From the IMG/VR virus record IMGVR_UViG_2740892046_000005: DNA of 6,463 nt; one strand, 5' to 3'. A model generated the notes under the pieces. It was not told the origin of the DNA. It did no database searches and was given only the letters and a program-made list of their open reading frames with translations. Made by a program: the position numbers and the translations under genes. Origin of the DNA: a virus (Duplodnaviria; Heunggongvirae; Uroviricota; Caudoviricetes). Shown piece by piece: positions 1 through 5,979 of the stretch; within the stretch, counting starts at the first letter, position 1, and every line of letters starts with the position of its first letter.

Positions 1-197
1 TGAAGACTGGGTGATGAGTCATGTTCGCTGCTTCCAGTGGTTGGGTGGCGTTCCTGAACTTGTTGTTCCGGACATGATCAGACATGAGATAAATGAAGGG
101 GGATCCGTGAGATAAATAACGAATTGGAGTGGGTTAACATGGGTTCTGGTGAACAGAACTGAAATTCTTTTCCGCTATACGATAGATAAGTCGGGCA

Positions 198-227
198 TTG
201 AAATCATCCTTCCTGGCAACTTAGAAT
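198..227 (+). promoter_or_regulatory. Candidate sigma70 promoter: TTGAAA (198-203), 18-bp spacer, TAGAAT (222-227)
   Basis: Both hexamers are 5/6 matches to consensus with acceptable spacing, in an AT-rich (~43% GC) stretch about 45 bp upstream of the 271 ATG. Motif match only; no experimental support. Confidence 0.3.
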
Positions 228-270: not shown

Positions 271-432
271 ATGACTACTCAAAACAATAAGCATGACAGC
301 CTGGATTACTCAGAAAAGCCCAAAAGCAAGCACATTGTGACGTTCGAGCGCGATTCCGGTAGAAAAGGAGAATCGTCTTCCTCTGCCAATAAAACCACTA
401 TGCCGGCAGCTCCTGCTCCAGGGAAAAAATAA
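271..432 (+). CDS. Hypothetical small hydrophilic protein (53 aa), convergent with the membrane protein gene
   Basis: ATG at 271 preceded by AAGGA at 9-nt spacing; TAA stop at 430-432; translation MTTQNNKHDSLDYSEKPKSKHIVTFERDSGRKGESSSSANKTTMPAAPAPGKK. Below the length cutoff of the supplied ORF track. Short, low-complexity and with no recognised homology, so it may be spurious. Confidence 0.3.
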   Translation: MTTQNNKHDSLDYSEKPKSKHIVTFERDSGRKGESSSSANKTTMPAAPAPGKK

Positions 433-435
433 ACA

Positions 436-1068
436 TCATTCATCGTTCGTTGCACGAACGCGCCTGATCTCCACTCTGGCAATCTGATCTGCTGGAATAT
501 AGGTTGCCAGAGCTCCCCAGTACTTATCAACCACGCCTTTATACTCTTCCCATTCGTTACTTCCTGAAGGGCTGCTGTGCGTGACGTAAAGAACCATATC
601 GCCTTTATTTCCCAGGGTAAACGGACCGTTAGGCCACTCTTCAAAGTTCCCTGGCAGCCGTGACATCATACCGGAACCATCGCGAAGAATCACTCTGACC
701 TCGGTGACGCTGAAGCCTGTTTGATCAAACATTGCCTGCCATGCTGAGCTGGTATTGTCAGACCATGAAATATCATTATTCCACAGTAATCTGTACATCC
801 ATTTGCGACCGTACCTGCGCCACCACGCACCGCATGTAACGGCACACAGAAGTGCTGGGGGGGTTGCCAGCCAGGCATTCAGACCTGCCCACATAACAGC
901 CTGGTAAGCCATCATTGCTGTCAGGCCAAAAATCAGCGAAGAAAAAGTCACCTCAATGGGTTTGTGGTGATCCTTCAGCCCCACATTCGCAATAAAATAC
1001 CCAATATAGCCACTGGTCAGGGTCACCAGTGTTGCCCATGGCAGATTTAATAACGAAACGTCAAACAT
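436..1068 (-). CDS. Hypothetical membrane protein, 211 aa: three predicted N-terminal transmembrane helices plus a ~110-aa soluble C-terminal domain
   Basis: Track ORF 436..1146 begins at a TTG; the internal ATG at 1068 has a GGGAGA Shine-Dalgarno 5 nt upstream, so MFDVSLLNLPWATLV... is the preferred start. Hydrophobic segments LPWATLVTLTSGYIGYFIANVGL, IEVTFSSLIFGLTAMMAYQAVMWAGL and LATPPALLCAVTCGAWW. GC is lower (~48%) than the early operon (~55-57%). No family recognised. Confidence 0.75.
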   Translation of the reverse strand: MFDVSLLNLPWATLVTLTSGYIGYFIANVGLKDHHKPIEVTFSSLIFGLTAMMAYQAVMWAGLNAWLATPPALLCAVTCGAWWRRYGRKWMYRLLWNNDISWSDNTSSAWQAMFDQTGFSVTEVRVILRDGSGMMSRLPGNFEEWPNGPFTLGNKGDMVLYVTHSSPSGSNEWEEYKGVVDKYWGALATYIPADQIARVEIRRVRATNDE

Positions 1069-1082
1069 ATTTTCTCCCTGCA

Positions 1083-1137
1083 TCCTGAATATTACATAGA
1101 GAGCATAAAAAAAGCACGGTAAAGGGTCTACCGTGCT
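1083..1137 (-). promoter_or_regulatory. Candidate activator-dependent (Mu Pm-like) promoter: 9-bp dyad centred near 1125, T-tract, -10-like TAATAT (1094..1089), no clear -35
   Basis: On the minus strand the -10-like hexamer starts about 31 nt downstream of the dyad centre and about 20 nt upstream of the 1068 ATG. This matches my recollection of the Mu middle promoter, where Mor binds a dyad centred near -43.5 and there is no -35 hexamer. Inference only. Confidence 0.3.
1106..1137 (-). terminator. Rho-independent terminator downstream of mor (stem AGCACGGTA / TACCGTGCT, 7-nt loop, then TTTTTTAT)
   Basis: Perfect 9-bp inverted repeat at 1113-1121 and 1129-1137. On the minus strand it is followed directly by six T residues then AT. 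It lies 45 nt after the mor stop codon. Confidence 0.6.
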
Positions 1138-1182
1138 CTTATACAATAAGGAGATTTTTGAAAGGACTTTAACAAGCAGGAA

Positions 1183-1581
1183 TTATCTGGATTTGTTAAC
1201 GTCTTTCGTCTCCTCTGGCAGATCTTCATCAAACAACCTGCCCTGCATCCGATCCAGTTCTTCTTTTCTGACCCGCTTAACCACGCTGTAGACCCACTGA
1301 AGCGAAACACCAAACTTGCGGGCCAGTTCGTGGTGGTTGCGTCCGTTAAACTCCCTGAAGATTTCCCGGTCGCGCTGACTGACCTTCCATACCATGCCCA
1401 TCGGGAAATAAACGTTTTGCCCGCCCCAGACCTGCATCATTCGGTTCGCGACGGCCTGACCAATCTGGTCGGCAATTGCGGGCTCAATATCAATAATCTC
1501 GCGAACGGTCTCAGAGGTATGCTGTGCCAGCTCCACCAGGAGTTCCGGCCCTTTACTTCGAAACTGATTCAGGTCGCTCAT
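1183..1581 (-). CDS. mor: Mor/C-family transcriptional activator (Mu middle operon regulator-like), 132 aa
   Basis: ATG at 1581 with GGGAG 7 nt upstream. C-terminal region GGQNVYFP...EFNGRNHHELARKFGVSLQWVYSVVKRVR matches the Mu Mor pattern as I remember it (GGGQVYIP...DFNGRNVSELTTRYGVTFNTVYKAIRRMR). Sits directly after the gemA-like gene as in Mu. Confidence 0.85.
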   Translation of the reverse strand: MSDLNQFRSKGPELLVELAQHTSETVREIIDIEPAIADQIGQAVANRMMQVWGGQNVYFPMGMVWKVSQRDREIFREFNGRNHHELARKFGVSLQWVYSVVKRVRKEELDRMQGRLFDEDLPEETKDVNKSR

Positions 1582-2005
1582 GTTTGACTCCCGCAGCTCT
1601 GCGCTGCCACTTCTTCAGTTTCTCAATAACACTGCTTGCCTGTTCAGTACTGAGCCAGCGCAGGGCGCTGATGCCCGTTTCCCGCTTGATCCACCGCGCT
1701 AATGCATTTTCTGAACGGTCACGAACAATGCCGGCAGCAGCCATTTCAAGCCATAGCGCACGGATTTTCCTGGACTGCGGATGGTTATCCAGCGGTAAAC
1801 CGGAGCTGGCTTTTCCGGCAGGCTTAACGCGAAAGCCTTTCCTTTTCATGGATTCCAGCACGCAGTTTAGTTGTGTGGTATCCATTCCTTTGGTTGAGGC
1901 TTTACCGGTCAGCCCCTGTAACATCTGGCGGTAGGTGTCTTCATCCATACCCAGTTCATTACGGGCAATATGAATGAGCTGGATAAGACGTTGTTTAGTC
2001 ATCAT
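1553..2005 (-). CDS. gemA: GemA/gp16-like protein (DUF1018 family), 150 aa
   Basis: Preferred start is the ATGATG at 2005..2000 with AGGAG 5 nt upstream; the track's upstream ATG at 2044 lacks a Shine-Dalgarno. N-terminal LIQLIHIARNELGMDEDTYRQMLQGLTGK matches the conserved GemA N-terminal signature as I recall it. Overlaps the mor start by 29 nt. Confidence 0.75.
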   Translation of the reverse strand: MMTKQRLIQLIHIARNELGMDEDTYRQMLQGLTGKASTKGMDTTQLNCVLESMKRKGFRVKPAGKASSGLPLDNHPQSRKIRALWLEMAAAGIVRDRSENALARWIKRETGISALRWLSTEQASSVIEKLKKWQRRAAGVKHERPESVSK

Positions 2006-4810: not shown

Positions 4811-4812
4811 TA

Positions 4813-5979
4813 TTAAACCCCTTTGACAACGTCAGCGTTGACCTGTGGAACCCCGATTTCAGCGGCCAGATTCATGGCGGCTATCACCAGGTTACTGACG
4901 GCCAGCGGATACAGCAGGCTGACCATATTTTTACGATGACTTCCCGGATTGCTCAGGCGGGCACGTATGGCATCCACTGCGCTGGCGTCCATAATGTCCG
5001 TCAGTTGTTTACCGGCCCGTTGCAGTTTGAACGTCAGAAATTCTTCAAGGTTATTGTCCAGAGGCAGAAGTTCGACCACCTCACAACGCTGAACGACTTC
5101 ACGGACTTCCATATTGCGTTCAGACAGTTTTGTCGCCAGTTCCGGCTGGCCAATCAGCACGATGGACAGCAGTTTTTTGAAACCGGACTCCAGCTCAAAA
5201 AAGCGTTTGAGGTGTTTCAGTGTCGGAATGGGCAGACTGTGGGCCTCCTCAATCACCAAAACGTGGCTGAACCCCGCCTGGCTGCTGTCTTTCAGGACGC
5301 GATGCAACTGGCGAAAGCGGGCGTCCTGACTGCGTCTGATGCTTTCCAGTGGTGCGATGGTACTGATAATGGCTTCGGCAATCGCTGCTGCCTTCAGGGT
5401 TTTCCCTTTCACATCGTTGTCTTCCATAGCGATGATGTATGGCTCGATAACAATTACCGGCGCATTCTCGCGGTTGATACGTTCAGTCAGGTCGCGGCGC
5501 AGCGTGGATTTACCCGCACCGGACTCACCGATGACGGCCATAAACCCACCATGACGGGCTGTCTGGTACAACGCCTCACGCACGTAGCGAATGTCCGGGG
5601 TGGTGAACACATCATCAGAACCCTGCATGGCTTCATCGGCGAACGGGTCACGGAAAAGACCAAACGCTTTTTTGGTTGCTGGAAATAACACCTGTTTTTT
5701 GAGTAACATATTCTCTTCCTCACTGAGGCTCGTTTTATCTGTGGTACCCGCTGTACGGGGCGTGGCTGCGCCCTGTACAGCATCAAAACTCTTCGTTGTA
5801 TCAATCCCCTGACTTTCCAGCCAGGACGCAAGACGCCGGCGCACTTCTCCGGGGCTGGTGCGGGGCCACGCGTTATGATTCACAATCTGGGCCAGCGTGG
5901 CCTCAGAAACATCGACAGCTCTCGCCACCACCGCCTGTGGGATACGGGCCTCTTTCAGTTGCTGCTTCAGTACCAGCAT
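4813..5979 (-). CDS. B: Mu B-like DNA transposition ATPase (AAA+ with N-terminal HTH), 388 aa
   Basis: Preferred start is the ATG at 5979 with GAGGAGG 5 nt upstream. Walker A GESGAGKST and Walker B-like HVLVIEEAH; N-terminal HTH-like IPQAVVARAVDVSEATLAQIV. Lies directly downstream of the transposase-like gene as in Mu and Tni-type elements. Confidence 0.85.
   Translation of the reverse strand: MLVLKQQLKEARIPQAVVARAVDVSEATLAQIVNHNAWPRTSPGEVRRRLASWLESQGIDTTKSFDAVQGAATPRTAGTTDKTSLSEEENMLLKKQVLFPATKKAFGLFRDPFADEAMQGSDDVFTTPDIRYVREALYQTARHGGFMAVIGESGAGKSTLRRDLTERINRENAPVIVIEPYIIAMEDNDVKGKTLKAAAIAEAIISTIAPLESIRRSQDARFRQLHRVLKDSSQAGFSHVLVIEEAHSLPIPTLKHLKRFFELESGFKKLLSIVLIGQPELATKLSERNMEVREVVQRCEVVELLPLDNNLEEFLTFKLQRAGKQLTDIMDASAVDAIRARLSNPGSHRKNMVSLLYPLAVSNLVIAAMNLAAEIGVPQVNADVVKGV

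Follow-up and report, generated by a model that had tools for sequence, protein, structure and literature searches.

Probable early-operon terminator, rather than Mor operator, behind the mor gene of a BcepMu-like Escherichia coli prophage

Can a single inverted repeat end one phage operon and at the same time carry the operator of the next? The question arises at positions 1069 to 1182 of a 6,463-nucleotide stretch of Caudoviricetes DNA (IMG/VR record IMGVR_UViG_2740892046_000005), which as a whole we call the window and which is the left end of a BcepMu-like transposable Escherichia coli prophage. There, on the minus strand, the gene for a Mor-like transcriptional activator (mor) is followed by a hairpin and then by an accessory (cargo) gene. 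The first-pass annotation of the sequence took the hairpin for an early terminator that may double as the activator-binding dyad of a promoter, with the hexamer TAATAT as its -10, in the manner of the middle promoter Pm of phage Mu. Our analysis points to a different arrangement, which we regard as probable: 1140..1107 would be the terminator of the early operon and not a Mor operator, a degenerate Mor box would lie upstream of it, and a weak sigma-70 promoter lying within the terminator would drive the downstream gene.

The hairpin behind mor

The anatomy of the junction agrees with its first description. On the minus strand, mor is the final gene of the early operon and its stop codon (1185..1183) is followed by a perfect 9-bp inverted repeat (arms 1137..1129 and 1121..1113) that runs into seven T residues (T7, 1113..1107). 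The stem extends to 12–14 bp over 1140..1110, where the strand reads AAGAGCACGGTA-GACCCTT-TACCGTGCTTTT. In a consensus scan of the window, no other strong terminator-like site than this hairpin, with its 14 pairs, turned up on the minus strand; sites of this class are overall not enriched in the window (9 observed versus 7.4 expected). The 34-nt hairpin folds with -17.4 kcal/mol (z = -6.9) and the segment 1182..1095 with -21.5 kcal/mol (z = -5.4), a stability reached by none of 200 shuffles. An Rfam search over 1102..1211 gave only two sub-threshold chance matches (E ~0.75).

The same junction was gathered from diverged relatives, referred to below by locus numbers (L). 15 distinct alleles were tabulated, seven of which align gap-free (alignment A2). 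In A2, compensatory double changes are found at 6 of the 14 stem pairs and 89.8% of the cells are paired; 0–1 of 500 shuffles matched these pairing and covariation values, and sliding the 3' partners as a control lowered the pairing to 39–61%. Every allele in A2 has a stable hairpin (-13 to -19 kcal/mol) followed by a T-run, and the stems of L004 and L005 differ from that of the window at several paired positions. Relatives without the cargo gene carry an unrelated hairpin 3' of mor (-24.9 kcal/mol). The compensatory changes, the stability of each allele and the other hairpins after mor point to selection on structure, as for an intrinsic terminator. That part of the first-pass annotation is therefore supported, by the strength of the hairpin, its T7, its position at the operon end and the compensatory changes across seven alleles. 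By these signs, the hairpin is an ordinary Rho-independent terminator, predicted to close the early operon, and it is the positional counterpart of the terminator-like hairpin found after mor in Mu.

A 16-bp box at the late promoters and a box-like element behind mor

Binding sites of Mor and C, the two related activators of Mu, span 16 bp, with two 5-bp inverted repeats around a G/C-rich 6-bp spacer and a centre at -43.5 (PMC4390567, PMC4287176, PMC2582627), and the C-activated Mu late promoters combine such a 16-bp imperfect dyad at -43.5 with a recognisable -10 and no -35 (PMC2582627). We read the whole prophage (~40 kb) as locus L003 from strain EC11 (NZ_CP027255), which is 100% identical to the window from base 75 on; strain 83972 has 98.4% identity. 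TTAA-N6-TTAA occurs four times in its 40 kb, where 0.16 occurrences are expected. Upstream of the operons for holin, head, tail assembly and baseplate stand three of the copies and a CTAA variant, and in every case exactly 23 nt separate the site from GATGCT, CAAACT, CATACT or AATACT; the dam gene is preceded by CTAA-N6-TTAA-N23-CATCAT. That is, yTTAA-N6-TTAAw-N23-nAnnnT is common to four late promoters and the dam promoter. In L007, a comparison prophage (FEA3) with ~87% identity across the left-end module, the half-sites and hexamers of these promoters are kept and the spacers and intervening bases differ. The fourth perfect copy (L003 37668-37681) is located inside the 5' part of an invertase (recombinase family) gene and has no -10 at N23. 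From the baseplate promoter, a leaderless or near-leaderless mRNA would be produced (AATACTGCCCCCATG).

The late and dam promoters are probably direct targets of the single Mor-like activator of the prophage. Family knowledge and motif statistics together suggest that this protein most likely recognises the 16-bp yTTAA-N6-TTAAw, placed 23 nt upstream of a weak -10. When the whole of L003 was searched by tblastn (with the window Mor, Mu Mor and Mu C as queries) and with Pfam for a second Mor/C gene, the mor locus alone was returned, and no second paralogue that could split "middle" and "late" specificity was found. Since the phage has only one Mor/C gene, the gene downstream of the hairpin is not of C type; at first reading it had been called a membrane protein gene, and its product is hydrophobic and 210 amino acids (aa) long. 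L007 has a second gene annotated as Mor family (29902-30450, 182 aa) that heads the early region, and the Mor of a Citrobacter prophage (L088 785-1378) has 197 aa, with a C-terminal extension that resembles a second partial domain.

A box-like element also lies between mor and the hairpin. Our box matrix was built from 10 canonical boxes, which themselves score 14.8–20.7 bits; the site at 1173..1158 reaches 13.1–13.5 bits and is the second-best of the window, which is below the canonical range and, as a single match, not significant alone. It has the 5-N6-5 form, its spacer is G/C-rich, and its right half-site (TTCA) departs from the consensus at one position. It starts 9 nt 3' of the mor stop and lies 17 nt upstream of the extended stem and 21 nt upstream of the perfect 9-bp arm. 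The top box-like 16-mer of the window, ATTAAACCCCTTTGAC at 4812..4827 on the plus strand, has no -10 at N23 and is probably a chance match, because it overlaps the end of the B gene (last codons and stop) and L007 does not retain it.

The half-sites of the box behind mor are invariant across five spacer variants (AGTCCT, AGCCCT, AGTACT, AGCACG and AGCCCG) in alleles that include L013, L078, L089 and L090. Among window-type alleles, conservation leaves a clear footprint: GCTT.TTAAAG is invariant, four spacer positions vary and TTCAAAAATC is again invariant; 3' of the box, ~17 nt diverge, the hairpin, the T-run and AT.CT are invariant, and the next ~35 nt, with TAATAT, diverge. The box is perfect in L004 and L064 and reads TTAA-N6-TCAA in L005 and L105. 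In L005 it follows an inserted gene of 78 aa and not mor, from which we conclude that the box travels with the hairpin and the downstream gene as a module. This 78-aa gene (MRYKTPNS...PPPPPPKC, or a relative of it) stands directly after mor in L005 (3200-3436, minus strand), L081, L080 and L086; in L086 a canonical box with CATTAT at N23 stands in front of it, and the hairpin is absent there. The Mor of L081, which has the L005 allele type, is 78% identical to that of the window. A 14-nt imperfect inverted repeat (1162-1175 and 1193-1206), in which the left half of the box pairs with GTTAAC in the last mor codons, is not conserved in L078 or L089. Read on the plus strand, the box gives TTGAAA-17-AATTAT (1158-1186), antisense to mor; we rejected this promoter candidate, which is found in this allele only, its -10 part not being conserved in L078 or L089.

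At N23 after the box, a -10 is present in L088, L091, L107, L086 and Mu. The first three (Citrobacter braakii, Salmonella diarizonae and one viral contig) have a perfect box followed after N23 by CAATAT or CAACAT, and their homologous hairpin begins 3 nt after this -10, which places the predicted start inside its 5' arm; transcripts from these promoters could for that reason not form the terminator. The window has CACGGT (1135..1130) at N23 and lacks a canonical -10. According to one alternative to the arrangement we favour, 1173..1158 would nevertheless be a working Mor site that directs RNA polymerase to CACGGT, with a start at ~1123 in the loop; this would be a middle promoter whose transcripts, devoid of the 5' arm, bypass its own terminator and continue into the downstream gene. 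The strictly conserved half-sites around a varying spacer speak for this, as do the occurrence of CACGGT at N22 or N23 in 7 of 7 window-type alleles, its A at position 2 and T at position 6, the canonical form of the same design in L088, L091 and L107, and the L005 box, which accompanies the hairpin and gene module even though another gene parts it from mor. However, CACGGT has neither A nor T at positions 3–5 and falls outside the range of the nine canonical hexamers. The DNA that would have to melt is rich in G/C, TTCA stands as right half-site, and the corresponding hexamers of L004 (CCCACT) and L005 (GCAATG or CGCAAT) lack the A at position 2. As CACGGT is unlike any of the nine canonical hexamers, Mor-dependence is doubtful in the window allele, and we consider a working site here unlikely. 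Two ways of pairing the box with another hexamer failed: TATAAG (1143..1138) is 8 bp too near, has no T at position 6 and is not conserved, and looping out the hairpin to restore the spacing yielded no consistent hexamer when checked by hand.

Promoter candidates for the downstream gene

Promoters were scored with a heuristic matrix made from sigma-70 consensus frequencies. The top intergenic score (8.1, about rank 10 of the 64,320 configurations in the window) went to TAGACC-17-TATGCT, which is embedded in the terminator. Bases 2 and 3 of TAGACC are paired in the extended stem. Positions 1, 3 and 4 of TAGACC (T, G and A) are invariant in 7 alleles though their stems differ, and TATGCT or TATTCT stands at the same place in the 15 tabulated alleles, except in L088 (no such hexamer) and L086 (no hairpin). 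In 9 of the 11 alleles scored, of window, L004 and L005 type and including some with stems that differ at several paired positions, TAGACC or TGGATA at 17 bp from TATGCT or TATTCT is the best candidate. The embedded promoter is weak in L091 (5.3) and absent in L088, both of which have the canonical Mor-type -10; the tabulated alleles thus suggest that such a -10 and a strong embedded promoter exclude each other, although the alleles of this kind are few.

We propose that minus-strand transcription of the early (transposition and replication) operon would end at 1140..1107, directly after mor. The activator would recognise yTTAA-N6-TTAAw boxes, a slightly degenerate one of which (1173..1158) separates mor from the hairpin. 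Its equivalent in distant relatives would belong to a canonical Mor-type promoter, the transcripts of which would start inside the 5' arm and escape termination, and the window allele offers no usable -10 after its box. Its downstream gene would be transcribed from the weak sigma-70 promoter, with TAGACC in the loop as -35, the 3' arm and T-run as a 17-bp spacer, TATGCT as -10 and a start at ~1095. This promoter is the most likely driver of the downstream gene, but it is not established as such. Observed are the anatomy, the stem covariation, the box common to the late promoters and the pattern of conservation; termination as such, binding of Mor to the box and activity of the embedded promoter are inferred.

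Several points weigh against this proposal. The box scores just under the canonical range, its TTAA-N6-TTMA match is a lone and not significant one in the window, and it is strictly conserved though the window allele has no matching -10 behind it. Only 8 of the 12 positions of the embedded promoter agree with the consensus, where our scan demanded 9/12, and its rank comes from a heuristic matrix of consensus frequencies; its 17-bp spacing partly follows from the fixed length of the 3' arm and T-run, and the conservation of the loop and of ATTCT could stem from shared ancestry or from a role at the RNA level. In addition, the 31 bp between the hairpin centre and TAATAT do fit the geometry of Mor/C promoters.

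The downstream gene might also have no promoter at all and be reached only by partial read-through of the terminator, which would then be an attenuator that keeps a distal early gene at a low level, the box and the hexamers being relics. In keeping with this, 0 minus-strand sites of the window pass the 9/12 promoter scan, and homologues of the gene in other phage contexts (L115-L117) lie inside operons that have no hairpin at all. But the 12–14 bp stem with its T7 predicts efficient termination, the early operon is repressed in the lysogen, so that a cargo gene at the prophage end would be silent, and the conserved box, the T-G-A of the loop and TATKCT in alleles with different stems would need another explanation. 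We regard read-through alone as rather improbable.

The hairpin would itself be the operator if Mor bound its dyad at ~-43, with TAATAT (1094..1089) as -10 and a start at ~1082, so that the same DNA terminates and initiates. The geometry reported by the first-pass annotation is correct throughout. The first base of TAATAT lies 31 bp from the dyad centre at 1125, which fits the 30.5 bp of Mu Pm and of the late promoters of the prophage, 20 nt separate the hexamer from the ATG (1068..1066), and a recognisable -35 is lacking, the best match, GTGCTT, agreeing at 2 of 6 positions. The central 16-mer CGGTA-GACCCT-TTACC moreover has a G/C-rich spacer and a right half TTAC as in the L086 box, and the TAGTAT of close alleles retains A and T at positions 2 and 6. 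However, 16-mers centred on the hairpin reach <=0.3 bits and no better than rank 171 among 12,896, far from the values of the canonical boxes and of the box at 1173..1158. The arms of 9–12 bp and the loop of 7 or 3 nt do not have the 5-N6-5 form of Mor/C sites, and in the whole prophage the half-site GCACGGTA is not enriched (36 versus 29.5 expected) and no second dyad was found. As a -10, TAATAT is not supported: close alleles have TAGTAT instead, and L078, L089 and L090 lack it although their hairpin is the same, with no nAnnnT hexamer 28–32 bp from its centre. L078 also changes TTTACC to TTCACC, and the stems of L004 and L005 differ at several paired positions; the L005 Mor is close to that of the window.

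The arrangement in Mu bears on the same point. We located Pm on the Mu sequence using primer JM6 (PMC4390567). The Mor site AGTAAAGCCGGTTAAT (AGTAA-AGCCGG-TTAAT) occupies -51..-36, and the -10 TATCCT follows 23 nt after its second half-site. Directly after mor, at -48..-28, the hairpin AAAGCCGG-TTAAT-CCGGCTTT with a T7 overlaps the Mor site, the dyad of which is itself offset by 5.5 bp from that of the hairpin and so argues against a hairpin operator. To judge by its sequence, this hairpin is probably the early terminator of Mu; a full-text literature search for t9.2 found nothing. The general idea of the first-pass annotation, that an early terminator and an activator-dependent promoter overlap after mor, is sound, because the Mu Mor site overlaps the hairpin and the Mor-type promoter of L088, L091 and L107 (the Citrobacter and Salmonella relatives) abuts the homologous one. 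The elements it named in the window are not supported in these roles: the hairpin is probably not the operator of the Mor-like activator, a reading to which we assign very little probability, and the 31-bp fit is best read as coincidental, the leader being A/T-rich. To call a Mor operator, it does not suffice that a dyad lies at the proper distance from a -10, because a terminator stem looks alike. Hardly credible at all is a constitutive, Mor-independent extended -10-like promoter at TAATAT or the overlapping TGT-AATATT: this allele does have a TG 1 nt upstream of AATATT (1096..1088) and A/T-rich sequence further upstream, but allele B has lost the TG (TTTAGTATT), L078, L089, L004 and L005 do not contain the element, and its matrix score is low.

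Finally, the ~100-bp junction after mor might act as a three-way switch that combines the terminator, a basal sigma-70 promoter used in the lysogen and a Mor start inside the stem. Lytic transcripts started by Mor would lack the full stem, could not form the terminator and would read through. For the window we give this only a small chance; the layout looks canonical in the Citrobacter and Salmonella relatives, and it may persist here in altered form.

Prophage context and known counterparts

GemA, Mor, Gam, an ExeA-type B protein and a transposase, that is, the Mu-type early genes, were all found, and the closest phage record, PhiKM, is filed under Bcepmuvirus. The early genes (ExeA-type B, gam, a DUF2786 gene, gemA and mor) all lie on the minus strand and are directed at the prophage end. 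About 114-122 of 5,426 complete E. coli genomes contain the prophage. Homology to E. coli genomes (~114 complete ones) begins at window position 74/75, and the host genes that flank it vary by genome; the prophage terminus, TGATCAGACATGAGATAAATGAAGG... with GAGATAAAT repeats, adjoins a host fragment, window 1-74. Translation of this host flank gives 24 residues, which presumably represent a fragment of an IS21-type transposase. The prophage in this genome appears to be inserted into an insertion sequence (IS) element, which accounts for the ~2,200 records that match the first bases of the window.

Table 1. Features of the window and, in the last two rows, of the whole prophage (L003)
Feature	Coordinates	Strand	Basis or remark
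mor-like activator gene, 132 aa	1183..1581	-	Pfam Mor, E = 1e-43; PHROG 532, late transcriptional activator
gemA	1553..2002	-	early gene
Mor-box-like 16-bp element, GTTAA-AGTCCT-TTCAA	1158..1173	-	matrix score, half-site conservation
Stem-loop, putative early-operon intrinsic terminator	1110..1140	-	terminator scan, folding, covariation
T7 tract	1107..1113	-	read from sequence; T-run in all alleles
-35-like TAGACC	1125..1130	-	stem top and loop; heuristic sigma-70 matrix
-10-like TATGCT	1102..1107	-	directly after T-run, 17 bp from TAGACC; predicted start ~1095
TAATAT hexamer	1089..1094	-	present; score 4.3, ~rank 98 (heuristic sigma-70 matrix)
Shine-Dalgarno GGGAG of 210-aa gene	1074..1078	-	sequence; GGAGG or AAGGA equivalent in all alleles
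210-aa hydrophobic protein, PHROG 12870 (unknown function)	436..1068	-	accessory cargo gene, prophage end
Convergent small open reading frame	262/271..432; promoter from 198	+	PHROG 15726
Prophage left end	75..130		TG..., GAGATAAAT repeated; E. coli homology starts 74/75, flanks differ
Late boxes: holin, head, tail assembly, baseplate gpW	L003 12204, 19602, 25519, 32149	+
dam box	L003 ~10801	-

The downstream gene belongs to a variable module. Pfam, NCBIfam and PADLOC gave no match for the 210-aa protein, for which no large homology search was made; homologues with 62–69% identity are found in Citrobacter, Serratia and Salmonella, and the gene is absent from PhiKM-type relatives. The small open reading frame that converges on it (53–56 aa, ending PAPGKK) has the best sigma-70 promoter match of the window, TTGAAA-18-TAGAAT at 198..227, and a homologue at the same position in Citrobacter braakii (L088 2142..2303). 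The stop codons of the two genes are 3 nt apart with no terminator in between, and the transcript of the small frame would be antisense to the 210-aa gene. Box, hairpin, 210-aa gene and small frame form a cargo module, window ~1223 to 75, that is either present or absent (compared with L001 and L025-L075); in PhiKM-type prophages, the mor 3' end leads through a different hairpin directly to the phage end. Homology breaks within the last mor codons, and another breakpoint lies at the cargo start codon (H56) or at 1077 (H57).

The analysis yields yTTAA-N6-TTAAw-N23-nAnnnT as a candidate box, open to testing, that the one Mor-family activator of a BcepMu-like prophage may recognise; from this box, the late and dam promoters of the prophage are predicted. 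In practice the gain is modest, namely an improved annotation of transcription units in these prophages; in addition, the junction offers a compact natural terminator-plus-promoter for study.

Morons, the accessory genes of prophages such as the lambdoid phages, have transcription signals of their own. The cargo module resembles them in being present or absent between otherwise close prophages and in its location at the very end of the genome, where it is insulated from the operon next to it. It differs in that the terminator stands upstream of the cargo gene and not downstream, the 3' side being taken by the convergent small gene. With canonical Rho-independent terminators, the hairpin shares a G/C-rich stem of 9–14 bp, a short loop and a T7 tail, the position 3' of a stop codon at an operon end and a stem held by compensatory changes. 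In contrast to these, it shows sequence conservation in the loop and in the bases just after the T-run, which in combination look like a sigma-70 promoter.

The holin, head, tail, baseplate and dam promoters of the prophage have the layout of the late promoters of Mu, namely Plys, PI, PP and Pmom, the dam promoter paralleling Pmom, from which mom is expressed under control of C. Unlike in Mu, the half-sites are TTAA, and a single Mor-like protein appears to act directly, without a cascade from Mor to C.

The closest counterpart of the junction itself is Mu Pm. In both cases, the early operon ends with a Mor-family gene, a 16-bp box (in the window a box-like element) of 5-N6-5 form and with a G/C-rich spacer begins a few nt past its stop, the same short intergenic region holds a stem-loop with a T7, and a weak -10 lacking a -35 precedes the next gene. 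Box centre and -10 are likewise 30.5 bp apart in canonical relatives and in the late promoters of the prophage (PMC4390567, PMC4287176). In Mu, however, box and hairpin overlap and transcription starts 24 nt past the T-run, whereas the box of the window is upstream of the stem, has one degenerate half-site and is followed by no canonical -10; L088, L091 and L107 have their -10 right against the hairpin and their start within the stem. A further difference is the downstream gene, which encodes an accessory hydrophobic protein in the window and a C-type activator in Mu. The junction is of the Mu Pm and early-terminator kind, with some local variation, and the placement of an early terminator together with a Mor-type promoter after mor is common to Mu and this distant BcepMu-like lineage.

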